Shown here: positions 12,701 to 64,000 of the stretch, piece after piece
Layout: each line of letters begins with the position of its first letter
How positions within the stretch are numbered: the first letter of the stretch is position 1
Assembly (NCBI GenBank): GCA_002633005.1
Contig: NMRA01000123.1
Span: 770,656-834,655, forward strand
Reading direction: 5' to 3'
Source: Phoronis australis
Lineage: Eukaryota; Animalia; Phoronida
Length of the DNA: 64,000 nt
Translations under genes and position numbers: made by a program
Notes under the pieces: model-generated
Database searches by the model: none
Told to the model about the DNA's origin: nothing
The model's input: only the letters and a program-made list of their open reading frames with translations

Positions 12701-15700
12701 AGCGGTGCCATCTGGAGATGTCAGCTTCGTCAACCCAAGACGAATTTTCGCAATTTCCAGAGCCTCTGGTGGAATAGCGGGCAACTTTCTCCTTACTCTA
12801 ATTCTCTTTCGAGGAATTACGTTGTCAGAGTCACTTGAGAAGGAGTGAGGAGAACAAGTCCTTGGTGAACGGGACTCACCCGAGGCACTGTTCTGCTGCA
12901 GCCCACAATTTGTATCATCTGGCACACAAGACTGAAGATAAGCATGGTTAACACCCGTATCCTCAGACAACCCTTTCCTCAAGGAGATCGGAGGAAATTC
13001 AGATTCAGGATCCCGTTGAAGACGGCCGGTTGCCGACATTGCCACAACCTCTGCCACACAGTCAGCAGTGACAAGATCGCAATCACTGGTGTCCATTGGC
13101 TGCAGCAAGTGTCTTGACCACTCATGAACATTGGTACGAGAGGTCTTAGCGCTGGCCCCTCGAGACCGTTCACTGTGATCGCTCAGGCTCGCGGCGTCAC
13201 GGGCTGTTTCACACAGGGAAATTTCGGGTGTGGACAAGTACGCCAGCATATCACTGTCTGGCTCCTGTGTAAACTTGGTCTTTGCTAGTCTTTCTAAAGT
13301 TTGGTTAAGTTTTGGGTACTGGTAGTGAATGAAAGAAGAGTTGACCGACCTCTGAACAGAGGGATCTACAGAAGGAGTGTCCAAAGCTACATTCATGTAC
13401 GTGCAGTCTTCACTAAGGAAGTGTCGACGAGGAACTAAAGACTTTGCTCTATCTAAAGCAGCAGATGAGGGCACGCTGGTTGTATCTATACAGCTACTAT
13501 CAGAACTGGAACCAGCTAAACAGAAGAAGGCATGCATAGGAGAGTCAGAGTGGGGAAGTGTTGCAAGTCGGGCATGATAGCTCACCTCCGATTTGCCGTC
13601 AAGCGGGTCCTGCTCCTCATCAAAAGTAGAATCAAAGTCGGACTGAAATCAAACAAAGCAACTGGTGTGGGTGCGGAAAAGAGAAAGACGGAAAGGACAA
13701 GCAAAACGCAAACAAAAACAATAAGTGAGGTGTACGCACAACACAAAAGCTCACACACAAAACAAAATGTAATACACTGACACAAAGTTCATGAAATTCT
13801 ACACTCTAAGATACGGACAAAATGATGAGGGTGCCTATCAATCATCAAGCATCAATGTAAGCATTGCACAGCGTATCTTAAGTAGCTGGAAATCCAGCTT
13901 TTGTAAAAAATGACTTAAGATCCAGGCCATTTACTACGCAGTTATAAAACTGATTTCAACTTGATCCTTACTTGGGTTCGAAGTGATTTTTGAGCTTGGG
14001 AAAAACTACCGGCTCATTTTGCACCGCACATAAAGTGACCAGCCGGGTCAAATCAACTCATTAAACCTAATGTCAATAACTTAGCCACTGTCAGTTGATT
14101 CAAAGAACAGAAATCATTTTTAATCTGATAAAGGAACAAGTCGAAACTCGTTTAGATTTATACTAGTGAACAGCCAGAATCAGAAGGCATTTTCACACAG
14201 CACGTCACGTATATAGAATGTCAATATGTACCTCTTCCTGCACAACAGAGAACTTAAGCTCTGGCTGTTGGTCTTCAATAGTGGAGTCGAGTGGTGAGTC
14301 GTCCCAGCTGTCCACACGTCGCCGTGGAGATGATTCGCTAATATCGGGGTCGCTGACCTCGGAGATGTCGCTCATGCCCAGGTCAGCCATTATTTCTGGT
14401 GCAAGAAAAAAACAAAGCAGCCTGCTCCAAAATTTATCACACTTGATTGAACTTCAAAATATGTTGGCGTTGACAAAATGGTCATGGTTAGATTTAGTGG
14501 GTGAGTATTAAAGTCATGATAACAGTGCTGAAGCACAATAACGTGCTAGTTTGAGTGAGAAAGCAACCAACATTACAAGCAAAACACTTGCATCCATTGA
14601 TATTATGAATCATCACACTTAACACATAAAAACTAATTTGCCAGACATTGGAACACTCCCAAACTGAGCTAAAAGGTCACATATTTTGATTCATTCTTAT
14701 ACAGGAGAGCTTTAGGCATGAACACTAATGTGGTGACAGTATCATAAGCAATTTGTCTTTGGCAAACTCAGATAAATTAAAGCTCATGAAAAATACGCTT
14801 TCATGATTTTCTTAACCTGCACACAAAAACTGTTAAGAACAGTAGGGTTGATTTCATGATGGGTTCTCACAAAAGGCTGAGAATGAAACAGAACTTACTA
14901 GCTTGCTTGTCTTTAGGCAAAGATCCTGTACTTTTCATGGTGCTTGAGAGTGGCGGGGTCTCTGCTGCCTCCTACAAACACGAGACCTTAGAGCCACCCT
15001 GGTCTCAATATTCCTCAAGTATGATGCAACTATCATATCAGATAACAATCTTTTTTGTTTCAAAATATCATGAATAACAACCCAACTCTTTTACGAACAA
15101 ATGTTTCAGCGGATGACTTTGTTAGATCACTATTCCATCAGTACAACGCGGGTTGCTGAACTATATGGATGATCATGAAAGAATAAATTTTGGAGTTAAG
15201 TCATTCACAAAAACACACCGTAATTCACAAAAACCTGTGCAGTATTGAAATAATCAGTTTTGAATCGAGCCACACTTTAGCCTCAGGTAGAAATTTGCAT
15301 GAAACATTTGACAACTTCAGCAGCGATGCTACTACATTCAAAACCTCCAAAAGTCTTTGAAAATACAAATTTCTACTTGACACAAGAAAATTACACAATT
15401 GAAGGTTTTCTAACAGGGACGCCATGACATTTTGAAACTTCAACAACATTCAAGTATGCAATGAACTCCAGGATTTTTATAACAGTGTCACAACAATTCA
15501 TTCAGAAGAAGTATTCATTAAAGTAACCTATCATCTCAACTGATCGCTGTAACTGCAGTCTCAGTAGTCAGTTCTTTCTTAATTGAGAACACCTCTTTCA
15601 ATCGGTACTGCAAAGTTCGTACAGCATACCAAGGCCACCCAGTAGCCACGTACCTTTCTTTGATCTGGTTTGACCTTCTTTGCTGTTCCCGTGACGCTTG

Positions 15701-21700: not shown

Positions 21701-24700
21701 GCACTTGATTCAACACAGTGTTCCCATACAACGCATTTAGTATTTCAAAATTATTAACAAAATCTGGTATACAACTGTCATTCACGTGTACTTCATACCT
21801 TTCATGTCTTTGAAGGATGTGTCTGCTTTGAACTGTAGCAAAAGCTTCACCAATCCCATGTCACCATCTTCGCAGGCCTGCATGAGGGGGGTCCTGGAAG
21901 CGACATAAACGCAGGAAATTACGCTATATATCCTCCACCAGTTCAAGAACAGCTGTTTTCCACGATCTCAATAAGCATCTTTTGTGAAATTTCTTAACCG
22001 TGTGTCACGTGCCAGTAAATTATCTCTAATCGTTAAAATACAACTACTTGATTGTTTAACAACCTCGGTTATTTTTCTCAAATTCTTTTTCGATCTCATC
22101 TGACACATTATTATAGAGCCCTCTAAAAATCACTGAGCTGATCTGAGCTATTGTCTGTTAAGCCCTTTAACCAACCACATTCAGAATTGCCATCAACTTC
22201 CATCCTACAATACCTTCTAGTCAATAGCCACGCCAACTATTAATCTTTTGTCATTCAGAAACCACCAGAATCAGCATCAATACGTATGGGCATAATTTCC
22301 AAAATTTACAAAACATGCGAAACGTTCAAGATGTCTTCACTTCTGTGATAAAAATCCAAAGAAATGATAGTATACTAAGTACTCCGTGGCCAATTACGCT
22401 CCCCACCTCGAGTTATTATCTTGAGCGTTAACATTGGCGCCCTCTTCCAACAATAACTGGCACATATCTTGTTGTCGTTCAGCAGCTGCGATGTGCAGAG
22501 GTGTACGCCCTTCCTGTTGAAAAATCAATTACATCAGGGATTAGAGACATATTTTTTCGAAAGACAATGGCAAAAGTTTAAATTAATATAAAACACAGAC
22601 GACAGAAAATCATTGAAAGCAAATTGGTTCAGAATACTAAATGCTTTACGAGACAGTGTCAGCGAGCAGAAGACAAATGGCATAGAACGTGAAACTGACT
22701 ACTGAACCGTGTAACACATTTCCCTAATGCACCTATGGATAGCTACATGAACACAGAGGACCAAGAATCAAAGTCCTCTTGTAAAGCTTCCGCATTACAC
22801 GGTTCCCACGCTGACGAACATACTTCCTTATTCATAAACACGGCAGTGAGGTCCAACAAACTCTGTTCACACCAGCTCATAAGTTCATGCCAAGCCTCAC
22901 AAACCCAGCTCGTCAACTGCCAGACATGGTGCCGGACTGACAACACAACCCCTCGCGCACAGTTCACTGACTCACAAAGTCTCGCTCAGACTATCAAACA
23001 CAGTGCTCAGACTGCTATCTACATTGTTGGGTGGTCAGTGAGCAGTGCCTGTGAGTCAGTAGCGTCGTTTTCAGCTGTGTAAATCATGTTTTGTTACAGT
23101 ATCAGGTTTGAAGGTGAGTGAGATGTTTGTGAGTCAGATAACCGAGTACATGGAGTCCACGAGTCGTGCTTGTAAGTGAGAAATTACATTCATGAGTTCA
23201 ACAGCCATGTTGTCTCCACACCTTGACTTCTTTAGGAAATTTTCCACAAGCTCATACCATCTCGTCATGTCACATAAAGTTCTGCATGAAAGCTATTTTC
23301 TTCCGTGCCCCTTTTCCACAAAAAGTGGAGACCACGATGTAGCACCGTCTAAGATGCAGTAACATTGGTTTACCCCGACAAAAAGGCATTGACCTACCTT
23401 GTTCTTGACATCAATCTTGGACCCACTTGACACCAGTATGCTGACTATGTCATAGAGGTTGTCCGAGGTGGCGTAGTGTAAACTGCAGTTGCCCAACTTG
23501 TCCACTGCGTTGGCGTCAGCACGGTGCTCCAACAGGAGTTTAACACAGTCCTCCTGGTGGCACTGGACAGCCTACAGAGATACACACAGGGGGGAATAAA
23601 TAGCAATGGCAAGTATGAAAGTTAAACATTTACAGCGTGGCAAAATCTCACCAATTTTGGACAAAATAATGGCTGCTAGTCGGCTATATTGAGCAAGACT
23701 TTAACGTCGGTAATACTTTTTCAGTGTGGTGCAAGTAAGTTGACACAGCCCAGCTGATGACACTGGACAGTCTACACAATGTTGTTGAACTGCACTGCAT
23801 TGTAGGTTACCAGCAGTCTTTTAGTGCTGGAAAACCGTGTTCTCACCACAAAAGTCATGATCATTGAAATCCTAATTATGAACATTTTCAAAATTCAGGT
23901 CTTAATTTGAGCTGAAAGAAAACTCTAAGACCAAACTTGTGTCGAAATATCACGCATGAGCAACTGTGTTATATTTGCTCAGAAGCAGTGCACAAAATAA
24001 TAATGATTTTGGAAACGACATAGTCAACTTTCACCAAAGTCATCAAGAGATGACTGTATGCATGTGTTCAAACTTAAAGGGGTTTAACAAGTGCACGAGT
24101 TATGGTGCACTATAAACTCTAAGGCTGAAATTAAAGTGAAAGTCATTTCTGGTGACTGAAGTGAGATCTTAGCCATCTCACCCACCATGTCGGTGGTGAG
24201 GCGGCGCAAGATAGTACACGTTGGAGTCTAAATGAAACACATGGAAGAGACAAATGAAGGTGGAGGAAACTCTGGCCTAGAAATCAACTGCCAAACTTGC
24301 GAGGCAGTTTATACAAACGGAAACTTCATAAAAATATTGACAATTATCAAACGTCCATTAGACCCATTTTTGAACATCAATGAAGCCTTGTAATCGTGTG
24401 AAAGGTCAGTTGCTGGTTTGGCGAAGCCATGTTATCGACCAATCAGAAAAACTGCATCAACATCCTTATGCAAAACTTCGTAAGTAAGTATGTAACCACC
24501 GTTGTTCATAGTGACTTAGCATAGAGCAAGATTAGGATATGAAATCACAAATATATACACAATTTACACCAAGTGAGAATTTTTGCTCAGGTAGAACCCT
24601 GTGGTGGTACCTATGCTATGGAACTACACGTAGCATTTATCTGGTGCTACTTATCTTTTATGAAAAAAACATGAAACTAAATAGAAGTTCACATGATTCT

Positions 24701-31316: not shown

Positions 31317-32110
31317 TTACTTTAGAAAGGCAGATAGCTTGCTGACAAAGATATCAAGAGAAGGGGCCGATGTAATATAGCCCGGCAAGCAATTCCAGTC
31401 AACGACTATCTTTTTCCTGTAATCTGTCCTATTTTTTGGAATGTTATAATTGGATGACCTTCTGGTACTAATGCCAAAGAGTGCAGGATCTGTGACAGGG
31501 GCATTATCAGAGTTTATGATCACCGACTTAATGGTTTCTAACATTTGCCCAATAGAAGATAGGCAAATGAACTGTCTCGTGACCCAACGAACAGTTTCCA
31601 TCTGTACTTTCTCTACAGCATTAATGTCTAAATGGGAGTCCCAATCAGTAGAGGCATAAATTCAAGGTGGGTCGAACCGTTGCTTTATATGCATTTCTTT
31701 ATATCTTTGGCTGCTTAATGTAAGTTTTGCCGAAGAAAATCAAGAATTTTATTTGCTTTCTTCTCGATTGTTGTTTATGTGGGCGAGATGGTAACGCCCA
31801 AATATTTCTAGCGTGTGATTGTGAAGTACATGGGAGGTGGTCTGGATTTGGCTTATTCTGGTGAGATTGTAGGCACTGCACTTGTCCTTCCATAGAGTAA
31901 GACTACATTGATCTTTCTGTGGAGCCTTTATGTCAATGGCTAAGTTGGCAATGTTATAACATATTGTATCATCTTGAAATAGTCTGGTTTTACTAGACAG
32001 GCCAAGGGGAATATCATACAATAGGAACAAGCAGAGGCCTAATACTGGGCCTTGGGGTACCCCAGACACCACAGGTATACCTGACGACTTCTTGCCTGTG
32101 ACAACTCTGG
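31317..32110 (-). mobile_element. Decayed 3' fragment of a non-LTR retrotransposon (CR1/L2-like LINE reverse transcriptase)
   Basis: Frameshifted RT motifs VVSGVPQGPVLGLCLFLLY..DIP...SSKTRLFQDDTICY (consensus SGVPQGSVLGPLLF..INDLP..RLFADD). Downstream are YASTDWDSH..INAVEKVQ...RWV and the C-terminal RTDYRK..VVDWNCLP..ITSAPSLDIF. Confidence 0.85.
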
Positions 32111-32914
32111 TTGTGGTTAAGTCAGTACTAAATGACCAAAATCCCACTGTGACAACAGTGACTAGAGTCTGACTGTATTGAGGGTCGTCTTCCCAATATC
32201 AATCAGGCACTGATACTAATACTGAGTGCTACCCAATGTCAGATATACTGTGCTACTAAAAAGCTTAAGTTTCAGTCCACCCTCTGGGTTTCCTATTGGG
32301 CCAAAAACAAAAAGTGTGCGTAATTCTGCTCTCTATCCCAAGTCATTTTAAGACGTGCTTACCGACTGAAAAAAGAACCTCACCCACATCAATTTCTGCC
32401 AAGGTCTCGTGAACATACAAAAGTAACCAAGGGAAAGCAGTAAATGTGTAAGAGTATGAGAGAATTACTCACCCTTTTGGTCGCCCTCCACACCTCTAAT
32501 GCTGCTGCATATTATCTTTAACTAGCTACTTCAACACAGCTACTAATTAATACTACATTATTAAGCTACAGTTGACTAACTGTTTTAATCTATTACTGCA
32601 ACTACTACCTTACAACAACTGTATTAAGTTGAACTACTTCAGTCTACATGTCTCTACCAATCACAGCTGGGATATTGCACTATACTATTAGCACATGCAG
32701 AAGTTGGCTGCATACATCCATTCCCTACACACACGACCCAAACGGCAGTAATGTGACCCGCATATCCGGGTCAGCTACGGCTGACCCATGCATGAAAAAA
32801 TAGGTTTGGAATGTCATGATTTGCCAAGCAATGAGAAAAAAATCCATGAATTTTCATTTTTGAAAAGCTGAGCAACTAAAATTAAATACTGCTACACCAC
32901 ATGACGATCAGGGG

Positions 32915-33893: not shown

Positions 33894-36800
33894 ATGAGTG
33901 GGGGATTAGCGCCAAGCAAGAGCACCATCTATGTGTCCAACCTACCGTTCTCTCTCACAAACAATGACCTGCACAAGATCTTTGAGAAATATGGAAAGGT
34001 TGTCAAGTAAGCTATTGGGTTCATATTATTTTATAAATGCAGTTTTCGTCATCAAAGCTGTCATAGTTACCGAGAAAGGTATACACACGAGTGCGCAAAT
34101 ACACATTCATGCTTGAATATGATCTAAGTTGGTAGAATCAAAGCATTGGATGCATGTTGGTTGTGCTAATTGGTTGTCGTAGTTACAAACATTTTCAATG
34201 TCCGTTGGCAAGCCCCTAACATAAAGAGAATTTATGCTTACACATTGTGTTTACTTGCACTTTCATGCCCATCCTCACCACTTTTTGTAGAGAATTTTAA
34301 AAGCGTACTCTGGTCTTTAAATTCCTTCTCCCAGTGCGAGTGTTAGAAATCTCCATTTATTATGGTGATCTGCGAATTAGGTTGGTTCCTGTCACATTGC
34401 ATTCAATTACAAGTGTCCAAGTTATGTTGTTCTGTAAGGCTGTTTTATGGGTGTCAGTGTTTACTTTTTGTAAGTCTAGCTAAGCCAGTCCCTTTGTTCA
34501 CATCGCACCTTAAGAACTGTTATTTACTAACCTCTCTCGCTCCGTTGCAGGGTGACCATTATGCGAGACAAGGACACTCGGCGTAGTCGCGGGGTGGCCT
34601 TCATACTGTTCTTAGAGCGAGAAGCTGCATACAAGGCAGCGAGAGCTCTCAACAATACTCAGGTAAGTTGCACCTCCTCTGACATGACTATTCATGTGAA
34701 ATGTTAATTGTATCCGAGCCATCTTTACACAGTCATGCAAAAAAATACACCTTCAGGAGTATATTCAATGAGGCTAGTGTCTTGGACACTTGGCAAGTTT
34801 GCCCTGATGAAACACAAGATCTCACAACTGTACATTTAACCGGAATTTATTTATTAACGTGGGATCTTGTCTGGTGGAACAGATACCAAACCAAACAAGC
34901 TTGTCTTTCATGAGTCCCTGGCAGACATGTATTATAATTGAAACATGCCACAAATGCTAGAATTCTAAGGGAGGTTGTAACCAGATGCTTGATAGATGGT
35001 CACCATGCAGCACTGATTGATGATGAGAAGTGGTATGTTATTACCCACAAGGTCAAGGGTCATTCTGTATATTTTGCCTATATTTTGCTTATAAGATTTG
35101 TGTGAAGCTATTAGATACCCTGCTGTATACATGATTTTCTAATACACTTTTAAATACTCTGCTGTATACACGATTCTCTAATACACTTTTAAAAACTCTG
35201 CTGTATACACGATTCTCTAATACACTTTTAGATACTCTGCTGTATACACGATTCTCTAATACACTTTTAGATACCCTGCTGTATACACGATTCTCTAATA
35301 CACTTTTAGATACTCTGCTGTTTTCACGATTCTCTAATACACTGTTAGTAGTTGTTTTTAAAACGCTTCACCTTTGCTTGAAGGGCTTGAAAAATTGGAA
35401 TTTTATGATTTTCAAGTTGCATGAAACAAAATAATGCTAAATTTGACTAAAAACACGTGATCACATGACCCAGTTAAGGTTAGCCAAAAATCAAATTCTA
35501 CCGACTTTCCGCTTTCAGAAAATATTTACTCTTACTAAGTTAAGGTTAAGGTTTGGCTAAATACACAGACGTGTCAACAAGGTCGTATACGTAAAGGTTA
35601 CTGAAATACAAAAACATGCATTTTAATGTAATTTAGTTAATGAGTAAAGTCTATATCAGAAATCAGTTTTTTTATTCTTTTGCATTTTTGTAAAAAAGCG
35701 TTTTTTCCAATGTTGTTTCCTATTGGCTAATGCGCATCTGACATCACTGAGGCTGCATCGTGGCTGAAGGCAGTGAGATAAATTAAGGAGTATACATTAG
35801 CTCATTGGGTGAAGGCCTCTCACTACAGAGCTGTACTTTATGTGTATAAGTCGTCTGCAATCTCAGCTCTCAAAAGTTCGTAATACAAGTTTACTGCCAT
35901 GTCTTGTTGACTATTATTGGAACAATGCCATTTTGCATGGCCCCATGTAGCCTAAATATACAGCAGTTGCGCTGTTGTGGTTAAAAAGTGATCTAATAAC
36001 ATCTGACACAAAATTAGTATCATTAAAAAATACACTGCTCTTACTTGAGTAAACTAAATTATTTACTGCTGTTGTAAATATTGGCGTTCTACCCGCATTA
36101 TTCTGCTTCTAAAATTGTGGTGCGCTCTTTTGCGTCGGCTTTCGGCGCCATCACCTATTGGGCAGTTTCTGGTTCTCGATTCTTCAATCAACTGTTCTTC
36201 TCTTCCATGAAGTTGCATACATGTCACAATAAATTATCGGATTTGTTTCATTTCATTACAAATTTTAATACCAGCCTACCGAATTTCAGAACAAAATTTT
36301 GCTGCTGCGAAGCTGTCATCATTTCGCGAGAGATGTCGCAAAATGGCATGTGCGCGTGTCATGAGTACTGTTTTCAAAACGAGGACTGACCTGGCCTTTA
36401 TGCAGCGTATGTCCTGGGCGTCCAAATAGATGCCCTAGCACTAATCTGGACCCCCTGGCAAGGACGCCCAATGTATCATTTGGATGTATCATTTGGACGC
36501 CCACTGTCAATAGGAACCTTTCAAGTTTGGACTCACACATTGTAATGAATACTAGGAACCCTCTGAAGGCTCACAGTGGGGGCTCTTTTTTCAAAGCAGG
36601 AAGATATATACAATGTATATACAAAGTATATGCATTGTTGCTATTTTGACACTTGATTGACAGCATTGTAAAAGTCTTGGTCTACACAGTTTTTTTTAGT
36701 AAAAATGCTCACCATAGAAGGCTGTTTTATAAACTTAGATGTAAAAACTTTGATCTATGCATTTTTTTGTAAACAAATCTGTGGACACCCTATTTTCAAA

Positions 36801-39800
36801 ATCCTGGATAAAGGCCTGGGACTGATTTTTCTTTGTTACAAAAGGCGAAGAATTATGCAAGAAAATGACATAGATTGTTTTTCACATAAACGGCTACAGA
36901 GGGCAAGGTGAGTATCAGTTGACTTCCAGATTTTGCATGCACCTCTGCCACTCTACATATTGATATAAGTTTCACAATGAGCTAGGAAACGAACAGAACT
37001 ACCCGGGCTGTGTGAATTTTTGGGATCTAGTGGAACTCAACACACAGTTGTACCTAGCTGTATTTTGACGATAGTCTTCATAGAGCTAGCTGGTTGGCTA
37101 GGCCCTAGGATGCACCAACGTCACTTGGAAGAAAAACAAAAAGGTTGTGAGCATGCACAAGTTGATCTGTCTACTGGAATATGTACTCGCACAGCCAATG
37201 ACCTATATCTCTTTGTGCTGTGCAACCTCAGTGACGTCATGAAAAACAGCGCTCACAGTGCAGCTTTATGGAACTAATATTTTTTTTAAATTAAAAAAGA
37301 AAAATATTGTGTACTATTGATGTGAATGTCTGAAACCAACCTTTATATTTTAAAAATTCATGCTAAAATGCAAAAACGTGTAGTTCAGGTTTCTTGTAAA
37401 ATGAATTCAACTTTGTACCAAGAAAGAAGGATCATGGTTAGGTACAAGAATTTTGATTAAAATCCTATGGTGTAAAAATGTAAACAGACATAACATTAAT
37501 GGTTACCGTACTTAATGGTATTTAATGTCACATCTATACCCAATATAAATAAGAAGTAGTCTTCATACACACCACATGTTGTTCACATCACGTTGGTAGA
37601 ACGTATCAGGAAACCAATTAATTTTTGTTTTACAATTTTGATAAGAACTTTATCTTTTATTAGCACACAAGAATCAGTTCACCGGTAGATTGCACTGTAA
37701 TGTATTTGATTTTATAAAATACCACATTTTATTCAATTGAGATTGATATTTAATAAATATTATTTAGAACGCCAGTTTAAAGTAACCTTCTTACATATGA
37801 ACAACTCAGTTATACTGAAAATGAAATTACAGTTACTGAAACTTATGAACAGTTATAGTTATACATAAAATAAATTACTTAAATTGTGAGGGTCTTACAC
37901 TTAAGCATTTCAAAAATCTTGAGCTTTGAAATTCAAGGATCAGGAAAATGAATAAGAGGTGCCACCTTCATCTAATGACACATCTGATTCATGCAATGGC
38001 GCGCCCTAGTGTCAAGCCAACAATAGAGTCTACTGCAGCCATCAGCTGCCATTCCTGTTGGGGATTAACGGAATAATCCATTCACCTTTCTTGGGATGGC
38101 AGGCAGATGTCTAGAGCTGATGACATGACTATCAGACTCCCACAGAGGTCAGAACATGCCTCAACCTGTCAAATGGTATAATCCATTGACTTAAAGGTAG
38201 TGTCAGGGCTCTGGAGGTGATGACAAGAGTTAAAGACTGGCTATCCATCTAGCTCCCATGTCAAGAGGTGATGACACGCTTTTCTGATTGGTCCACAACA
38301 AACTAGGGTTATAGGTCAGGAGATGCAGTATAAAGACAGGTCTAACAACAGTACAGAACTATCGATCTAAAATCACACCAGGAACATGCAGTCTTTTGAT
38401 ATGTCAACTTGTGAGCTTCACCAGATGTGTGGTCAAATGAATATGTCACAGACAGTGAGTGAGCAATATAAGGTTATAGATGATCCCAACATACAGGCTT
38501 TGCTGAGCTTTGTTGCATCGAGTTGCATTGGGCAACAAAGTATGTTCAACATGGCTGACTACAGCTTTGGAGCACTGCGATCTACCATAACACAATGCAA
38601 AGCCGTCGAGCCCAAGTTGAGTGGAGCAAAAACCAAAGCGCCAGTTGACACCGGCTTCAAACGAAGGAAGAACTCGGCACGACCCAGAGTACAATACATA
38701 TGTTTAATCGCTCGAGCTATTCTGGCATCTCCTAATGAGCAATGTACTCTTGCGGAAATTTATCGTTGGATACAGGAGAAGTATCCTTACTATCGTGTCG
38801 GCAATGCCTGGAAAAATTGTGTGCGATGCACCTTGTCAACAAATGACTGTTTTGTGAAGGGTGACCAAGTAGACACTGACAAGGGATGTAAATGGAGCAT
38901 TCATCCAGCCAATGTTATTGATTTTAAAAATGGCAAAATTAGACAACGACATGCAAACATGACGTACCGTAGATATATGGAAATGAACAGCCAAAGTCAT
39001 GTGACCACTTTACAGGACAATGCACTGTTGCTTTCAACTTCACATAAGCGACTGATACCTGAGAGTGCTGTTCATTCAGAGACAAAANGCTGGAACAAGT
39101 TGTCACTAGGCATAGTAGTAATGTGGACACTACTTTGACCCTACTTTTGCTGGGGCAACTTGACATGTGTAATGACTTACTTGACACTATCATGACACGG
39201 TAAATTGTTCTAGGGTAACTTGATCCAGCGCAAATCGTAGTGTGGACGCAAACCTGCAAACAAGGGAGAAGTAATTATCACCTGAGCCTTGCTCAGTTAA
39301 AGGTTTTGGGATGTTTCTTGCACCATGTACATGAATGACCTAGTACAGGTGGAAATTTAAGGGGAAACCCAATTAAAATTGTGAACTGAAGCACAAGTTT
39401 CAATGACCCCATTCACTGTCAACACAATAGAGAGCCAACTGGATGGGCTGCCAACAGGCACATAGTTTTATGACCTTGAATGAGTTGTCATTAAAGGATT
39501 ACATGATTGAGTGGAGCCCAAGTGGGTTGCTGTCAGTGTTACCTGTACATGGTCCCTTTTGATTGTCATTGTGTAGGGTGTGTAGACTGGATGCTTGGCT
39601 GAACAGGGGTAAGTTATGGTAGGGTAACTCTTGATGTGGAAATTCACAGTGAATGACTGAACACTGTGACAACAATGATCAGGTCATGATTACATAGTGC
39701 CTATTCATAAGGCAATGTCTGTTAGTGTTATGATAGGTGACTGACTTTTTTAGATGTAGGAAACATTCTTGAAGCGGCTCTCCATCACAAAAATAAAGTT

Positions 39801-42800
39801 TGATTTAGACCATTTGTTGTTATGCCCCATATTGTTCTTTTGTGAAATTTGATGTACCGTACTCGTCGGGGTTACCACCCATGCTCAGATTACCGCCCAC
39901 CCCCTGTTTTTTTAGATTTCCAATTTAAGCTCCCTGGGACAAGTACGGTAATTCCATGAATTTAAAAGAACTGACAGTTCATTCGTTGCTTGAGACCAGC
40001 CTCTACATGGTGGCTCGTCACAGTGCATCGAGGAATAATGAAGTGTCAGTTTTTTGTGAACCCAGAAATGACTTTCAGTCAGAGTAAAGAACCAATTTGA
40101 TGCCAAGTTTATAGTGCTAAGTGAAGTCTAAACCAAAAGTTTGCTACTTGAGGAATGAGGATTTATAGTTATTTTAATCCATTTGTAAACTTAGGAATAT
40201 GCAATTGATAGTCATTTGTTGTCAGATACCGTTTATTGTTCTTGCAACCGAAACTTTTCAGAAGGTAATGGACTTTCTGTCAATCGGGTATCAGCATTGT
40301 TAACACCCTCTGTGGTTTTTTTGACTCAAACTTTTTGTTGATATTTTGTTTCCAATTCACTGGGAGCATTATAAGCAATAACAAATATAATTATGTAAGA
40401 GGCTTCCTGGGTAATAATGATTAGTGGTTGGTTGTTAGCAGTGCTATTTAGTGTCACATCTTAGGGTAATTGTCACCTTTTCTACAAAATCAATTCCCAA
40501 AAACCGTCAATTCTTTTTTGTCAATTGAAGGAAACGTCATCAAATTTTGTTGTGGACACCTACACAGTGCGAACCCATAGTTCTAGATTAAAATAATTTT
40601 AATCTAGTCTTAGTCCTTTTGTTGAGGAATTATTAAATAAGTTTCAGTAGTTTGCCATATCATGTGCTAAATAAGAAAAGAATATTTTTTTCATGTCTGG
40701 TATCGTGTTTCAGATGTTTGGTCGAACACTGAAGTGCAGTTTAGCAAAGGACAATGGACGGGCAGCAGATTTTATCAGGAGGAAAAATTATCCGGACAAG
40801 AGTAAATGCTACGAGTGTGGGGTACGAGTACCAGGATTTTGGATTTGAAACATTTGTTACCGCTTAATAGTGTCACAAACAGTTTTATTTTAGTGTGTAT
40901 TGATACTAAGTGTACCTGAAAGATGTATATGCATGCTCCTAACTATCCTAATGATTGACACGAACTAATAACATTCAGTGTTATTTCCCAACACCACGTC
41001 AGGATACCTTCTAGACACGGTTGAGAGATTTACGCGGATCATTTTCTACTCAAAACTCGCTCTTAAAAACATTTGACAATTTCCAACCTACTTCATATTC
41101 ACATCATTGCTATATGTTGTGGTTTTAACTAATTTGACCAAGCAATCACGGAGATAAGGAATTATCGTGCAAGTCCCTCTTTAATGTATTTTCAAAATGG
41201 CAAAGCTGTTTGAAACATTGCAAGAGGTATCCCCAAGCTAGAAAAGTGTCTGTGCCTCGTAAATTGTCTTGTGTCATTATTGTCATAAAATTGTTTCAGG
41301 AATCCGGTCACTTAAGCTATAAATGTCCTGAAAATTTACTGGGCGAGAGGGAGCCACCGAAGAAGAAGGAAAAGAAACGTAAAGGTGACCAAACTGAAGA
41401 CAAGTAAGTCAATGATGTAAAGAGGATTTTGGGATTAAGGTTTCCCAAACGTAATTCACAAGTAGTTCTTTGCTAACACTTGAGTGCTGAACAGTTCAAA
41501 CTCAATGTTTTGTTGTTGTCTCAGGCAACGTAAATTCGATGGTGTGGTTTTCATTACTGTATGTCTCTAGCCTTTAATATCAAAAGAGACGTGAATTTTT
41601 ATGCCTTTGTGGTAACATTTAAAATTCCAAAGCTGTCTTCAGTGTATTGACTTCACTCCAGTCTTCTTACTTCAGTCTATTAGAATTAAGATCTGCCAAT
41701 TCATGCTGTTTGCTTTTGCTGTTATACATGTCACCGAACATAAACCATAAATTATGTGTCTCAAAATCAAACCCCCAGAAAATTTTCTCTATGAGCGAAC
41801 TTAAGAAAGGAAAGCAGTGAATGTTTTGATGCAATATTTACTACGAAACTGCCTCACAATTACCACTTGACAGACTGTAGTGCTTTCCACTAACCTTGCC
41901 CGGAGTCAGCAGTCATGAACCACATCATTTGATCTGGCGTTTCAGACGTGTTGTAATCAAGGAAGTGTAGTTGTATTCAAGCATCAAAATTCGCATCATT
42001 GATTTTGTCAAGAATCTTAAAGTGGGAATTTATTGTAATTGGGATTTTGGGGCGAAGGAGTGATACAAATAATTTCACCCCCTCCCAAAAACGTTCAAAT
42101 AGTTTTTATTGATGTTGCATTAATTTGATTGTATTCCAACTGCAATTTTTCACATTTTTCAAAAACCTTTGAGATATCTTTGTGAAAAATTGTGGTGACA
42201 CCCAATAGTTTTTGTTTTCCCCATTGTGGAACTGGTCATTTGTCTATTTTTCATCAAGAAAACATTTTCTTAACAATATGTTTACTGTGTTATGCTTTGA
42301 GAGCATTATAATTGCATCAGCGCGCTGTTGGGTTGTTTTATCAGGAATGAGGAAGACTTTGATGAGGAAAGTGACAGTGAAGACCCAGCTTTGGAAAGTC
42401 TTGCTCAGGCCATCAGTGATCAGGTATTGCACTTCCACGCATGGCGCCACATAGCAGTTGTGTTATTGTTTTTACATTAACTGCAAGCAACTTAACGAAT
42501 CATTCTTGACATTCGCCTCCATTATTTGTTGAGGCTGATCAGTAAAGTTCGGTCCGGTCAAAACTGGTTGGTTCTGATTTGCCCCCCAAAGCATCTCTCT
42601 GTGTAAAAAGCACAAGTCTGCATCAATTTCAGCTGAGATCTCAGAGTTTTTTCAGCAGCCACATACAAACAGGGCTCTAAACACCACAGCTTGCCGTGTC
42701 ATCCACTATTGCGCACCCCTCCTCCTCCCTAATATGGCAGACAAGTGATTGGTTTTCTCAGTTTATTTATTAAGATATTGAAGGAGCTTGAAATGAATGC

Positions 42801-43374: not shown

Positions 43375-44893
43375 TGACTGTTTGGTTTTTGCTGTATTCA
43401 CAGGAGGAATAATATTTAAGACGTTGATTTTGTTGAACCACAGAAACCCTAAAATTTTCTATTGGAATGGTTTCACCATGAAACATCGTGGGCATGTGGT
43501 GTGAAGCAGTACCATACCATAATGCAACAACAACAGTTAATCATACAATGCATTTCCCTGCTGTCACAACAAACAGGAGTTCATATCAGGACGGTGCTAT
43601 GCTTTTTGGATCGATCCTGGAGTAGAATCCATGGTTTTACATCATTGCTTCAGAGGACTTTTTTTACCGAATCCAGCTACTTGAAAAATTTGTTTGAAGG
43701 AATGTTTTCTTTCAATACGTTGAACATGGACAAGTGACATAGCCATATTGGAGGAATCCTTCAAATATCTCTGGTTATTTCAGTCATGTTATCACATCAT
43801 AGTATCGTTACCCGAGTCAGGAGTCTTGTGGCTCTGGATTTTTGTTTTATTTCTTATTTTATTGTCTTGAGTCATTTGTTTGCATGATGCATAAAATAGA
43901 TTGTATTGCAACAAAATTGTGTTTTTATTGTTTCAGAGTGGTAACAGAATGCAGCCTCATGAAATAGTTATTTGGGTCGTCATTTAATTTTTCCTTGCAA
44001 ACTTAGTTCAGTGGAGAAGTTGCTAGGAGACAAAGTAGCAAGAGCTATAGATATTGCCCAGCTATCCTATGAAATATTGTAGTCAAGAATTTTCCGGCAA
44101 AATTTTGAAATGTTACTAAGCAGTGGTGCCTATTTATGCAATTATGTTTCCATCGTTTTTATCTCGCACTGTCTTTTTTTTTGTTTACAAAGAAATCCAA
44201 AAGGGACTCTTCAGTTTTGTCGGAACCATTGGTTTTAATTTTTCATTGTGAAATAGCTGACGATGACTCCTCAGGTCTAGGGTGAGCGATTTGCTGTACA
44301 AAAGAGGATGGGTCATTAGACTTCTATCTTGTCACTATTCAAGTACTGGCGTGGATGACTCTGCTTTTGGAGTTGCTGACATATAGGATTACAGCATTTA
44401 TAATTATACATTTCTAGTCAATTTGGTGTTTAGAAATTAGATTAGGTTGTTTTGAAGTTGCCCGTATCTGTTGATTGACAAAATTCATTCATACAAACCT
44501 GCCCGTCAAGAGCTATTTATGATTTTGGCAACTTTTGGTTATAAGCTGGTCTTGGCTTGTTTACTTAGCGTAAATTAAAACAATTTCAGTGCGTAAGAAG
44601 AAGTAACAGTGAGCCGTTGCTGAAGAGCCATCATGATGATAGTTGTACTTGAACCAGCCAACTTGAGCCAGTCATGAGTTAGGGACAAGTTGAGATCCTG
44701 TTGTTACATTGAGCGGCCTGACAAATTTGGTTGACAGCAGCTTTGAACATCAGAAGCATCTCCATTGGAAGTGGTCTAACATTGCTGAAATTTTAGCGAA
44801 GCTCTAGAATTGAAAATTAACGTAGTTATGAATTGTCATTGCAGACTGTACACAAAGAGTGAATTGTTCTTACAGATTTTCTGTCGTTTTACG

Positions 44894-47493
44894 ATGTCTA
44901 AGCCCCTAGTCTATTGGATGAGTGGCAGTCCCCCGTGCTGGAAAGTATTTTTAACTTTACAAGAATGCAGTGTCAGATACAAGGAGAAGCTATTGTCTGC
45001 GTCGCAAGGAGAAGTCCAGTCACCAGAAATGCTGAAGCTGAATCCTCGAGGAACGGTAGGAAGAGAACTTGAAATAAAAATTTATCGAGTCGATTACCTC
45101 GGCTGTCGCATTCAGTGCTTCACTCACCTGCAATAGTTGAGTTACTTTTTATTAGTTCGAATAAATAGTAAAGCAAATTAGATATGTTGAAATAAAATTA
45201 ACTGATACTACCTTTAAATCTTCGAATGAATAGGTTTTACAGTTTATAGATTCCTATTTTGTGATTACTTTGAATGTTGCTTATTTTAAATCGTGTAGTT
45301 TTAACTGTGTTCTGTTTGTACTTTAAGGGATAGGATAGATTTCTTAAAGTTATTAGTTTTGTCCAGAGCTATGAAACAACAAAATCCTAAATCCAGGTGA
45401 AACAACATTATGATGCATTGTTGTGCTGCTTTGTAAAATCTTTGTAACTAGGTTTTACAATTTTTACAATTGGTAAAATTCTGCTTGAATACATACTTTT
45501 CCAAAAGACAGCCTGATATTTTAGAATGTAATTTTTCTTTAAATGACTTGAAATTTCTATCAAAAGTGATGCCATGTTCCTTTAACGCCCTACAGGTACC
45601 TGTCTATGTTGAAGGGGGCACTGTGATCGTGGAGTCATTAGCTACGTGCCTGTACATTGTAAGCCAATGTCCAAAGCAGACGTTGTTGCCAACAGATGGA
45701 GCCACAAAAGCTCTTGTGCTGCAGAGGCTCATGGAGAGTAATATCATGCAAGACGTGAATAACCGTGAGTGCAACGTCTACGAATTTAATTCTTCTATGT
45801 TTACGTGCTTGGAATTCATGAGAGCAGACGTAAAAAATTTCCCATCATGCTTTTGGTTAGTTTTTGAGGTTTCGATCCATCTTTTGTAATTGCATAACAT
45901 AACCATGAAATTTTGAATTCCAATTGAGATCTGTCATTTTCCCAGTTCCTGCCATGTGATGTCACTGAACACAGGATGTCGTTGGTGTTCATCTCTGACT
46001 GCAAAAAGTCAACAGTCGTGAATACCCGGGGATTTACTCTTCTCAATGTAGTTGTCATTTTCAGAAGTGTGGTATAACATTGTGGCTGTGCCTAAAGACG
46101 AGAGAAATCCATCTGTTGTTCATGAAACAAAGGAGTTGCTCATCAAAGAACTGACTTTATGGGAACATAATATTGGCTCGGTAAGTTTATTCTTGAGAAT
46201 CAGATTTGGTTGCTAGGACTTGCTTGTTAAGTTACTCACAACATTAGAATCATATTGACTCACTAGAAATTCCAACCATTTCATGGCACCTTGTACTTAG
46301 TCGACAGATTTATACAAGTACTGTAATGTTTTTTAGTAACGGTCATCTAAGGTCCTTTTAAATGGAGCAGAGCAGTTAGTGCAGTAGTGATGACTTCAGG
46401 GCAATACTGAAATTAGTTGATACATCGTGGACTAAACTGGGGATTTTTTACCTCTTTGGCCTATAAAAAGTAATTCTTTGTGAATATTTTGGTTTGGATC
46501 ATTTTTTACATGAAGAAATACGCTATTAAGTAGTCAAAATAGATGTGTTAGGTTTTGGTTTTGTGGTACCGGTTGATAAACCTTGTTGCATTTGATACTT
46601 AGTTCTTAGTAACTCTTGGAATTGTGATGCCGGACAACAAGACTGTGGATAGGCTTAACAATGGACAAGGCTGACATCCGAATTTAGCCTCAATTTGAAA
46701 ACCGCTTCCATCTGGAGTTGAAACCAAACAAAGTTTTTGAAATGAAGGAAAACATCAACTCTCACCATTACGTGGGTTTTTTGCCCAGATTTGTTTTTCA
46801 AGTATTGATTTAACATGTAGTTAACGTTGTACTTTTAGAAGGAGTACATGGCCGGAGACACGTTCACGCTTGCCGATTGTGGTGCCTTTCCGCACATTGC
46901 ATTGTGGGTAAGGCTTGGAGTACGGCTGTACCCTCGTTTTCCAAACCTTAAGAAGTGAGTATTGCCTTCAATGGAAGATTAATGCGATCCCAATTCAGTG
47001 TTTTTCGAAGTTGATTCATCAAGTTAAAATAATTATAAATACCAATTGAAGAAATATCTGGAATTTTTTCAAGGGGAATAACTGAGTTTTAAAATTCTTA
47101 AAAGATTTACTTCATAGATAGTGTGGTTAAACATAATGGATGTTATACAATTAGTGACTTTCACCGAGGTAATTGTATTTTCAGACCCCAAAAATGTTAT
47201 AATGATCCAGGCAAAAGCTTTGACCTTGGCCAATATTGTTCTTCAGATATCCATATGACATGATGTCAGATTTCGTCCATGTTTGTAATTAATATGCAAA
47301 ACAAATATTTGTCTTATATTTATTCTGAGTTGATCAAGTCCTTGGTTTGTGTCTTAGAAATGATATTCATTAAGACTGCAACTTTTTCAGGTACTACGTG
47401 AGACTTTGCCAACGTGCTTCAGTGAAGAAAACATGGCCACCTCTGTGGACTGGTGACAACTGGACGAGTCTGACAGATTTGTATCAAACTTGA
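44894..47493 (+). CDS. Glutathione S-transferase, rho-class-like, 221 aa
   Basis: Exons 44894-45055, 45596-45764, 46065-46180, 46839-46954 and 47391-47493 total 666 nt and are phase-consistent. Motifs YWMSGSPPCWKV, LNPRGTVP, IVESLATCLY, ALVLQRLMES, VPKDER, LIKELTLWE, YMAGDTFTLAD and RASVKKTWPPLW match the rho/GST-A type pattern (YWGxGSPPCWRV...LNPRxQxP...ESxAxCLY...SWPPxW). An acceptor at 44875 implies a 5' non-coding exon. Confidence 0.9.
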
Positions 47494-53000: not shown

Positions 53001-56000
53001 TCAGTTGTTTTTGAGCGTGACCCGGATACTGGAGAAGATTTTTCCCATGGCCTCGTAGCATGGCGCCACGAAACTCTCCAGCATGGCAGAAAAGATGCGT
53101 CGAGTGCAAAGGAGCTTGATACCCATTCCCTTGAGACACGGCATCCATAGCCAGATGTTACAGAATGAGAGGCAAGCGAACCAGATGCCGAACACGACGG
53201 ACAGGGGGATGGCGCACAGAAGAGACGTTATGCGATAGCACCACAGCTTGGTTCCTGTGAAGACCTGTAAAAGAACAGAATTACTATGACCATGCGGGTA
53301 CGTGAACTTTCGGACAAAGGCAAGTATTCGCGAACGCGCGTCTTGTCTTTGATGCCTTTTGCACACTGAAATTTTGACCTCGACATTGACAATGGCATCA
53401 CTTTTGTGCAACCGTCTTACGTCCCAGCTTAAAAAAGAGCATTGATGGTGGAGTCGTCAACGGTGGCAGTTACGGTCAGATGGTATTGACGGTGACAATC
53501 ATCACGAAAATGATGGTCGTAGTGGCAGTTAGAATTGGAACGATAGTGGTAGTGATAGTGACGCGACTTGTCAGGTGATGATGGTGATGGGTAACTACGC
53601 TGATCGATGGTGACAAACTAGTTATGACGACGCGATGGCGCTGGTGGCCGTCATGGTGTGAACATTATGCGTCCTAAGACAGTAAGCTTATTGTAAATTT
53701 ACAACTCACTAAAAGGAGTAGTTGAGGGCTATTGATATTTTAAGAGTAAATTGTCAATGCTGAAAAATGGCGATGCGCGCGCGTGCGCGCGTGTGTGTGT
53801 GTGTCCGTGAGCGAGTGCGTGTTTGTGCACGCGCGTCCTCATGAATAAAATATGGGATATGGGTGCAAAAACATTACACTGCACTTGTGAATGTGATGGA
53901 GGTAAAAGAGACATATACGTACCGTATAACTTAGTCCCCACACTCTGTCAAAGCTGAAGATAGTGCTATCAGGTTCGGCAAAGACGTCATGGAAAGTAAC
54001 CTACAACAACAAAAAACAAGAACACTTTAAGTTAACAACCACAGAGTCCAAACGAACGATTCACAGCAAGCAGTGCAATATCATATGGTTGTACACACAT
54101 GTTCATACTGAGCTGCTTGCGAGTTATGGTATCCACACGCTGCCAATAGGCGGCAGTGGCAACGGTATCGCTTTTATTCTCAGTTGCTTGTACATGTCAG
54201 GGGCGGATCCAAGATTTTGAGTTAGGGGGGCCAGGCTAGAATATTAGCCAGGATTTTGCCCGTCAGACATTTGCACCCCCGAACTGCCTAATGGAATCTG
54301 GGACAATTTTAGGGGGGGGCATGGCCCCCTTGGCCTCCCTATAAATCCGCCACTGCATGTACATGCAAATGTTAGTATCGTGAACAGTGCTGCATATATG
54401 CATAGACAAGATTTGTACTCAAAACACAAACGTTGCTCGATTTTCATGTTAGTCGACCATTCATGCATTCAAAATTCACAATATTGCTTTCCCACATCGC
54501 TCAGAAAGCATCATGTATCGAGTCAGGTCAAGGTTAATTTGCCATGAAATGCTGCATGTATTGGGGAAAATTCAATAAAGACTCTAAGTGGGCTAGTAGT
54601 TCTTGCAACAGCATCTTCTCAATGGTGTCCCCACAGGACGCTAAGTTAGACATAAGGCAATCTGGCATCATGTCAACGGCATTGGTATACTGGACTGTCC
54701 CAAGGGACAAATTAATTGAGCGCAGTGGATATACTGCAACGTGATAATTACAACCACATGCCTATACTAATCTAATGTCGCCAACTGACATGGGGCGGTG
54801 GCAGACGTAAAATATCCAAAGCCCATGTAAAATGGTGAAAATGCATTACTTTGAGTGAGGAACAGGCCTGTTGAATTATTTGAGTTTTCGTATTTCGCCA
54901 GTGCATTTGCTTCCCTGATAAAGTACAGTTATGCTTTGAAACAGTTTGTTTAATTCCCCGGCTCTGCAAATTCACTTTTTTTTACAGTACGCCATTTTAT
55001 TCGCCAAGCAATAACAAACTAACAGCCACTTCTTCCAAGGGAAAAACCCATCTCATTTCGGTAAGGACCAACAATAGTGTTTTAATGACGGAACACGGGC
55101 TTTTATAACGCTGTGTTACGTGCTCGCATTATTGGGATTTGCACGCGGAAAATGGCGGGTTTCGACCATTCATATAGTAACTTCTATAAAAAGTGATATT
55201 TTTCTGTTCTTCAACTATTGCAGAAACACCGTTTGGGTCACAAGAAGGCCTGTATGGCGTTTCGGAGACAAAATAATGTCTTTTATTATAAGCGTTGTAG
55301 TTACATTTCACGATACTCGTTCTGTTTTCTTTGGAATTATCTAAAAGAGAGAATCGACAGCGCAGCAGCAATCCGTAAACAATAGTGGCTCCGGAGGCAA
55401 ACAGTGGGCGTCGTGAAATGATGCTACTGACTGAATGTGTCTGACAGTGTTATCATGAGCTTCAGAATCAGAGCGCGTAGCAGCTGTAATTCTGAGACGA
55501 AGGGCATGGATTGAAAACGTCGTTAATTATTGAATTTTCTTGAGAAATAGTAACAAAGTAGGAGACTGCATCCAGTTTTCTTTCCAGGATTGAAATAGAG
55601 CGCGACCGGAGTGAACGATCGGGAAAGAAGTTAAGTCAGCTAAGTACGTTCTGAAAGGGAGACCAACGTGTACTATTCTTGGTAAAGTTATTTTGTCAGT
55701 AATAAGATCATACTTAGCGTTAATTTTGATAACAATGTACTATTCCGTGGGTTGAAATGCTCTTCTTCAATGCGTGTTGTTGCTTAATTAACGCGCAGTA
55801 ATGCATAATCAACGTCGCGCTGAATATTGGTTATTCGTCAAGTCCAATCAAAGACAAGTTTATAGTCGGTACGTACAACCGCGAGGAGGCAGCACAGACG
55901 AAGCATGTCCGTGATGAAGCACAATCTCGTTAGAAACTCTTTGCATGTATGCAGAAAGTCTTCCGCTATTTTGAGATTAAAGAACAGGAATGTGATTGGG

Positions 56001-63617: not shown

Positions 63618-64000
63618 GATGGGTGTGTTTTGAAGACCGAAATTCCTAAGAATGAGACAACCCTTGCAACTGGTTTTGCGTCCGCTTCTGCTGTGAGACG
63701 CTGCCTGATGCCGCGACCAACAGCCTGGTCAGCGGACGAGTCTACTTGTAAAACAATACAGGGTTGTCAGGTCACACAAAGCCCTTGTTTGTGCATTCCG
63801 CTTCCGTAGTTAGCAACATGTGCGAACCATATCCTTACATTCACTGGGGTGAATTCTTTATTATCGTAATTATCGGTAGCCCAGTAATCAACTAGATTAA
63901 TATCGCCGGCCTTTGTCAATTGGATTATAACTAACATGACAGGCAATGATTTCAATATTTCCTACGACTTACTATTTCGTGATCTTCTGTGGCAACGTTC

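Follow-up and report, generated by a model that had tools for sequence, protein, structure and literature searches.

A likely FoxQ2-class gene with an intact forkhead core and a changed recognition helix within an intron of ZCRB1 in Phoronis australis

We analyzed a 64,000-nucleotide stretch of Phoronis australis DNA (contig NMRA01000123.1, positions 770,656 to 834,655), referred to here as the window; positions below are counted from its first letter. A single-exon FoxQ2-type open reading frame (ORF) of 250 amino acids plus stop (38386..39138, + strand), recognized by a Pfam Forkhead match and by RNA depth in runs X5 and X6, lies within the gene ZCRB1. The host had been named ZCRB1 in a first-pass annotation made from the sequence alone, and its first coding exon matched PDB 2e5h with an E value of 2.3e-18 (runner-up match, 1.9e-6), confirming that identification. 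Coding exons 1 and 2 (33894-34006 and 34551-34662, + strand) together matched the Pfam profile RRM_1. Exons 3, 4, and 5 (40714-40821, 41300-41403, and 42345-42423, + strand) were placed by sequence and junction reads, the last exon starts at 43243 (+ strand), and the five ZCRB1 exons are in-frame when joined. Exon 2 was previously said to end in the middle of the RRM; it ends at position 64 of 70 of the Pfam profile, near the end of the domain. A neighboring caveolin exon had named matches in Lingula, Solemya, and Capitella at 46 to 56%.

Intron 2 of ZCRB1, the host of the Fox gene (34663..40713, + strand; GT..AG; 6,051 nt), was examined with three stranded RNA runs (X5, X6, and X7), which come from one study, were picked by species label, and were read to 18 to 19% each. 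The joint from 34662 to 40714 was crossed by 26, 16, and 19 spliced reads in the three runs. Because RNA reads splice 34662 to 40714, the intron is real and the Fox ORF lies inside it; these splice reads and the same-strand RNA described below agree with the proposal that the ORF sits in this intron co-oriented with its host. Nested genes of this sort are already known. In the X1 DNA contigs, depth was present in all bins (30/30), and unique contigs of single-copy depth were found on both sides of the Fox gene. The contig over the gene had a depth of 48.7 and 0 gaps; since this resembles the depth of the flanking unique contigs (28 to 52), one copy of the Fox gene fits. No single X1 contig joining the Fox gene with a ZCRB1 exon was found, and a tblastn search found no second forkhead in the 64-kb window.

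The ORF had been described as complete. The frame is open from 38386 to 39138 (250 amino acids), as stated, but its end is uncertain past a single N base at 39088, in codon 235, which is the sole N of the window. The X1 contig aligned over 822 of its 840 letters, without an indel over these 822 nt, and the alignment ended at 39087. RNA depth in the bin 39044-39377 was 0.69 in X6, where a loss of all coverage past the N would give 0.68; in X5 it was 1.44, above the 0.66 predicted in the same way, so the drop at the N is not total. Because the X1 alignment ends at 39087 and depth falls at the N, we regard codons 1 to 234 as secure and the final 16 codons and stop as uncertain and possibly wrong. 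Searching a word index with the full-length protein gave no match at an E value of ≤1e-10 among 125 candidates, and its N- and C-terminal parts matched none of 286 stored proteins. The ESM Atlas gave generic forkhead clusters only. In metagenome scans, none of 16 pattern matches to the Fox ORF was confirmed as a relative, and one 2,171-bp contig resembled ZCRB1 over 14 residues and had no Fox gene; these scans are uninformative.

The forkhead domain (amino acids 99 to 190; 38680..38955, + strand) was delimited by Pfam, column conservation, and AlphaFold2 and PDB matches. Pfam Forkhead matched amino acids 99 to 177 with an E value of 1.6e-26 and 92.7 bits, against a cutoff of 27. The domain was searched against 1.84 billion representatives, and among the best 150 matches, which were kept, 137 belonged to the FoxQ2 clade; the other 13 were all multidomain proteins with summed scores. 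The clade was anchored by amphioxus FoxQ2a (P0099), Schizocardium FoxQ2-1 (P0208), and P0088, whose domain was paired by eye with Bla_FoxQ2III in the accessible part of a supplement (type II was labeled likewise by eye). Single-domain matches, all from the FoxQ2 clade, scored 92 to 105 bits. Against PDB chains, the same query scored 77 bits with FoxA and at most 64 with Fox C, D, G, H, K, L2, M, N, O, and P. A wing motif, W-x-I/V-H-x-x-N/C-x-x-x-F, is present in the query, in 251 of 255 FoxQ2-clade rows, and in 0 of 13 outgroup rows, counts obtained on the same data from which the motif was derived.

We built a tree of 61 rows picked from 269, with an outgroup that lacks Fox A, B, D, G, H, I, L2, N, O, P, and Q1. 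The query fell inside the FoxQ2 clade (support, 96/97) and outside the supported FoxQ2 II and III clades. Its branch was the longest (4.34), in keeping with the earlier description of the gene as fast-evolving, and its highest domain identity to any tree row was 48%. On a fixed backbone with 118 placements, all 14 placements at outgroup rows cost 17 to 36 lnL units (pAU < 0.05); the best placement was sister to FoxQ2III, with several type I places within 5 lnL units. In constrained searches, in which the outgroup was likewise incomplete, neither a query sister to all FoxQ2 (p = 0.405) nor a query joined to six non-Q2 rows (p = 0.175) was rejected. Profile scores for FoxQ2 I, II, and III were 112.8, 109.7, and 109.2. 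A pattern for the EH1/EH-i-like motif of FoxQ2II/FoxQ2-C found none in the query, in which the C terminus is uncertain. We conclude from these sequence comparisons that the gene is likely of the FoxQ2 class, as first suggested.

We compared the domain with 242 distinct FoxQ2-clade domains, after 13 outgroup rows and duplicates were dropped, at 34 columns that were 90% conserved. The query keeps 25 of these columns, including all 16 hydrophobic columns but only half (9) of the 18 with a polar residue or Gly (Fisher p = 0.0011). Only 3 of the 242 domains depart at as many conserved columns. In recognition helix 3 (amino acids 142 to 151; 38809..38838, + strand), the alignment shows Ser changed to Cys145, His to Cys148, and Asn to Thr149; Asn144, Arg147, and Ser151 are unchanged, as is the wing motif. 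At the position of Cys148, 99.2% of the 242 domains carry His and none carries Cys; two near-identical divergent proteins have Tyr there. A curated FoxQ2 table with about 139 rows has the string RHNL 135 times in the sequence text shown, and the helix string of the query is absent from that text. The change from His to Cys is not one miscall, because two base changes are needed, and none of the 40 allele difference rows listed falls at the Cys148 codon. The residues equivalent to Asn144 and this His in FOXO1, N211 and H215, make base contacts; H215A is reported to abolish activity, H215R to disrupt binding, and N216A/K to lower activity (PMC8789783). Differences in forkhead specificity reportedly arise mostly around the near-invariant Asn and His (PMC12143875). 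Of the base-reading pair of helix 3, the query retains the Asn and has Cys148 in place of the canonical His. Because the DNA-reading helix is without its near-invariant His, the usual forkhead site is likely unread. This loss lowers the expectation that the protein works like a standard Fox factor and leaves its presumed descent from the Fox family as it was. At the level of sequence, the notable new part of this locus is that the forkhead domain retains its core while its recognition helix is altered.

The AlphaFold2 model had a normal winged helix (mean pLDDT, 83.7), for which the best Foldseek match in the PDB was FoxA2 (E value, 2.6e-8). We did not accept the model as evidence of stability, since the alignment behind it consisted of intact relatives. 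When we simulated neutral decay to 25% residue change, the 234 codons stayed open in 65 of 2,000 cases without indels and in 1 of 2,000 with them. Because random decay rarely leaves the frame open, the Fox gene was under selection during most of its divergence. Present-day alleles give a less clear picture: of the 7 differences listed in the Fox ORF, among 15 on the X1 contig, 5 were non-synonymous, all outside the domain; for ZCRB1, 1 of 6 was non-synonymous.

The Fox ORF was transcribed on the ZCRB1 strand. Depth in its two bins was 5.28 and 4.99 in X5, 6.18 and 5.14 in X6, and 1.27 and 0.47 in X7, and opposite-strand depth was 0 in both bins of the three runs. Unique intron bins upstream of the gene had a depth of 0 to 0.9x, and the ORF reached 0.21 and 0.36 of the depth of ZCRB1 exon 2 in X5 and X6, respectively. 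The ORF signal in X7 was comparable with scattered intronic reads of that run (0.97, 1.75, and 0.78); because it does not rise above them, clear Fox expression is limited to two of the three runs, in which it amounts to about 23 and 25 reads (X5 and X6; one study). Independent expression of the Fox gene, proposed in the first-pass annotation, is in line with these stranded depths (5.0 to 6.2x in X5 and X6, 0.5 to 1.3x in X7).

Upstream of the ORF, we located a core promoter (38287..38334, + strand) from the sequence and from the rise of RNA depth downstream: ATTGG, the reverse of CCAAT, lies at 38287 and TATAAA at 38329, so that the reported CCAAT and TATA elements are both present. Pairs of TATAWA and CCAAT so placed lie upstream of about 0.2% of window positions, and a CCAAT partner in that position accompanies 4 of the window's 29 TATAAA. 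In X5 and X6, depth was 0.01 to 0.02 in the bin 38042-38375 and 5.3 to 6.2 in the next. Because depth is near 0 in the bin ending at 38375, RNA reads appear to start right after the TATAAA, and the profile in these two runs fits a start near 38355-38375, close to the ∼38355-38365 that had been predicted.

Between 37976 and 38276, without regard to strand, we found a cluster of eight TGACA/TGTCA and three TAATCC/GGATTA motifs, candidate TALE-homeodomain and Otx-type sites, for which we infer the factors from the motifs. The 371 bp before the TATA box contain the window maximum for TGACA and for TAATCC in sliding windows across the 64 kb. Among 2,000 dinucleotide shuffles, 0 and 1 reached the counts of TGACA and TAATCC, respectively, and any 5-mer occurred at least eight times in 10 of 1,000 shuffles. 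It is important to note that the cluster was found post hoc, after the repeats D1 and D8 were seen, and that the full TGACAG is present at 1 of the 8 TGACA sites only. Meis2 is reported to bind TGACAG, and Otx2 to bind TAATCC/T (PMC9081933). FoxQ2I genes are reported to have Meis sites, and they reportedly receive Meis input in sea urchin, with a prediction of the same for amphioxus (PMC12828049). By its motifs, the cluster looks like an anterior-type promoter with Meis-like and Otx-like candidate sites. Neither this cluster nor the changes in the recognition helix had appeared in the first-pass annotation.

An AATAAA at 39792..39797 (+ strand), recognized by sequence, had been proposed as the poly(A) signal of the Fox gene and as a site at which host transcripts could end after exon 2. 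The hexamer is present, as described, but it is no commoner than chance as a signal: AATAAA occurs at 0.72 per kb of the window and in 214 of 633 tiles of 700 bp, and for this reason we rejected it as evidence of polyadenylation. The surrounding DNA is moderately repeated (X1 summed depth of 537 in that bin), and three further AATAAA in intron 2 (36228, 37752, and 37869) are all upstream of the Fox promoter. RNA depth at 39378-39711 was tried as a Fox 3' UTR and rejected as repeat (X1 summed depth of about 1,093). In the ZCRB1 host INTERFERENCE, junction reads over intron 2 sum to 61, compared with 59, 56, and 81 over introns 3 to 5, and exon-2 depth was about 24, 16, and 21 versus 26, 16, and 19 intron-2 junction reads. 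Termination of the host at the Fox poly(A) site is thus unsupported in these three bulk short-read RNA runs (61 junction reads versus 56 to 81), and so is a link to ZCRB1 or minor-spliceosome dosage; intron 2 splices normally in all three. A joint from exon 2 to the Fox gene was not among the 15 joints listed; the expected intron-1 joint is also outside these 15, and rare joints into the Fox gene may be as well. Around the start of the Fox gene we found no strong acceptor-like site, and splicing to the AG that immediately precedes the ATG would break the frame. A donor-like site lies near 39610.

The first-pass annotation had also suggested that the Fox gene was transposed or retroposed. We found no poly(A) remnant (no A-run of at least 7 in 37401-40713) and no convincing target-site duplication, only five direct repeats of 9 to 10 nt at chance level. 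Old retrogene copies lose their poly(A) and target-site-duplication marks. Intronlessness was rejected as evidence of retroposition, since it is the native state of clade I Fox genes, foxQ2 included (PMC9539403). Retroposition was therefore not borne out. The gene has a promoter with FoxQ2-like motifs, which favors duplication at the DNA level as its likely origin, a route that we infer from this promoter. foxQ2 is often expanded, with 11 copies in Owenia (PMC9539403).

Several known systems resemble the locus in part. Divergent, lineage-expanded foxQ2 paralogs, of the FoxQ2I type or without an EH motif, are likewise short and single-exon and lie on long branches (PMC9539403 and PMC12828049, as far as accessible); they share with the query the FoxQ2 wing motif and upstream Meis-like sites, and the pattern used gave no EH1-like motif in the query. 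The query differs from them in that its helix His is Cys, as in 0 of 242 domains, and in its domain identity of at most 48%. The accessible text of both papers holds no mention that we could find of an intronic FoxQ2. Engineered FOXO1 H215R and H215A and Drosophila N146A H150A have the same helix-3 His changed in an otherwise kept fold, and DNA-binding-deficient FOXO is reported to retain DNA-binding-independent functions (bioRxiv 10.1101/2025.08.20.670103). In contrast, the query is a natural allele of another Fox class, carries His to Cys and two neighboring changes, and is predicted to bind DNA weakly or at a different sequence.

Same-strand nested single-exon genes of Drosophila (PMC3814207) and mammals (PMC11694760) are reported to be also intronless and fast-evolving and to lie in a long 5' intron. 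Here the product of the nested gene is a transcription factor of development; the arrangement is otherwise ordinary. The statement that most nested genes are antisense to their hosts applies to Drosophila, in which 71.27% are antisense and 72.53% of the same-strand ones are single-exon (PMC3814207), but mammalian nested genes are reported to have a slight orientation bias only (PMC11694760), and a same-strand gene belongs to a minority without being a rarity. As here, the mammalian pair H13/Mcts2 has a same-strand nested gene with its own promoter in a host intron; there, nested transcription triggers intronic polyadenylation of the host (PMC13309782), whereas truncation of ZCRB1 was not visible in the three runs. 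In the open-access literature, we did not find a foxQ2 gene in a ZCRB1 intron, an account of helix 3 or DNA binding in divergent foxQ2, or, by title or abstract start among the papers listed, any work on nested Fox genes with this arrangement.

We put a rough probability of 55% on the reading that this is a self-promoted, separately transcribed, likely FoxQ2-class gene in a ZCRB1 intron, whose protein is predicted to retain the forkhead fold and has probably lost the ability to read the standard forkhead site, RYAAAYA. Transcription would start at the TATA promoter, driven by the Meis/TALE-like and Otx-like cluster as in other FoxQ2 genes, and the host would handle the Fox gene as intron, leaving the two genes functionally independent. 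Asn144 and Arg147 being kept and His148 and Asn149 being changed may result in weak DNA binding or in the binding of a different sequence, and the protein could serve as a specialized modulator beside canonical FoxQ2 paralogs. More tentatively, we consider a "reprogrammed" FoxQ2 that retains ancestral Meis/Otx anterior inputs and a folded domain, that with its Cys-x-x-Cys helix has ceased to read the forkhead motif, and that might act against canonical FoxQ2 as a decoy, a cofactor, or a factor of new specificity. It is unlikely that the gene is simply a fast-evolving FoxQ2 paralog of the ordinary type, one still able to bind the forkhead site, perhaps more weakly, and with the usual apical or anterior role, its nesting being incidental: the wing motif is retained, as are Asn144, Arg147, and Ser151, the upstream cluster resembles known FoxQ2 inputs, and divergent spiralian foxQ2 paralogs are common and reportedly retain apical expression (PMC9539403), but the His is near-invariant even in divergent FoxQ2-clade domains, changes of this His in FOXO1 remove binding or activity (PMC8789783), and so many conserved columns are altered in only 3 of 242 domains. 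We are more doubtful still of a once-selected, transcribed gene that is now decaying, with DNA binding lost and the 3' end perhaps truncated by an insertion at the N. The lost key His, the 5 of 7 listed allele differences that are non-synonymous, the fall in depth and the end of the contig alignment at the N, the low expression, and the EH1-like motif not found by the pattern used would suit such decay. Against it stand the complete hydrophobic core, the frame open over 234 codons, the X1 allele without an indel over 822 nt, the intact promoter and motif cluster, and the absence of in-domain non-synonymous differences among those listed.

The remaining alternatives concern the host and the locus. 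It is improbable that a nested poly(A) site or nested transcription truncates ZCRB1 after exon 2 and tunes minor-spliceosome dosage. Intron-2 junction reads match later introns and exon-2 depth, including in both runs in which Fox is on; the unique upstream intron is nearly unread (0 to 0.9x), and neither an exon-2-to-Fox joint, among the 15 listed, nor a strong acceptor-like site near the Fox start was seen. These results are set against a mammalian precedent, in which H13 is polyadenylated within its intron when Mcts2 is active (PMC13309782), the three AATAAA upstream of the Fox promoter, and bulk reads that could mask an effect in few cells; an effect on ZCRB1 could be confined to those cells or stages in which Fox is strongly expressed. 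That the gene sits elsewhere or belongs to another Fox class, with the nesting or the label an artifact of assembly or of long branches, is the least probable alternative. The N within the gene, the repeat-rich intron, the spanning contig that was not found, and the survival of non-Q2 placement in constrained tree searches speak for such an artifact, but DNA depth is present in all 30 bins, the gene is flanked by unique single-copy contigs, and top scores favor FoxQ2 over FoxA by ∼27 bits.

Under the favored reading of a separately transcribed, likely FoxQ2-class gene, the locus would offer a natural, expressed paralog in which the helix-3 His is changed and the fold is kept, and with it a direct way to test if Fox factors can alter or drop their reading of DNA and stay useful. 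It may also bear on the reasons for which foxQ2 copies have multiplied and diverged in invertebrates.

The ZCRB1 intron that hosts the Fox open reading frame (ORF; 38386-39138, plus strand) is rich in repeats. High-copy repeat DNA makes up its 5' half (35370-37373), where the summed depth of the DNA contigs (X1) reached up to ∼84,000 and RNA reads were found on both strands. A tandem repeat with a unit of ∼39 bp also lies inside the intron, at 35108-35348, and matched itself at offsets of 78 and 156 nt. On the minus strand, 31317-32198 holds two ORFs that look like decayed fragments of a non-LTR retrotransposon reverse transcriptase; a Pfam search of the two returned no match. Downstream of the Fox ORF, a donor-like site with the consensus GTAAGT (39607-39618) could allow the Fox transcript to be spliced onto exon 3 of ZCRB1; no such joint was among the RNA read joints listed.

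The window also holds other gene-like features. Directly 3' of ZCRB1 is a glutathione S-transferase-like gene with GST_N matches (44789-45889, plus strand). The remaining features are on the minus strand: a caveolin exon (53001-53456; Pfam, E = 5.6e-26); a stretch at ∼63309-63728 that looks similar to a caveolin N-terminus but for which Pfam gave no match; and an ankyrin-repeat exon (23293-23571; Pfam), 3' of which lies a low-complexity open frame of 2,603 codons (5837-13648), without a match in a Pfam search.

One of the best 150 protein matches to the Fox domain, P0002, is an unnamed 1,153-amino-acid protein with eight forkhead-like stretches, the best of which groups with divergent FoxQ2 rows. 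The Fox forkhead domain itself (38680-38955) contains 6 cysteines, compared to 1 to 4 across all 242 FoxQ2-clade domains, and these 6 include a Cys-x-x-Cys in the recognition helix. We speculate that so cysteine-rich a domain might be sensitive to redox state or to metals.
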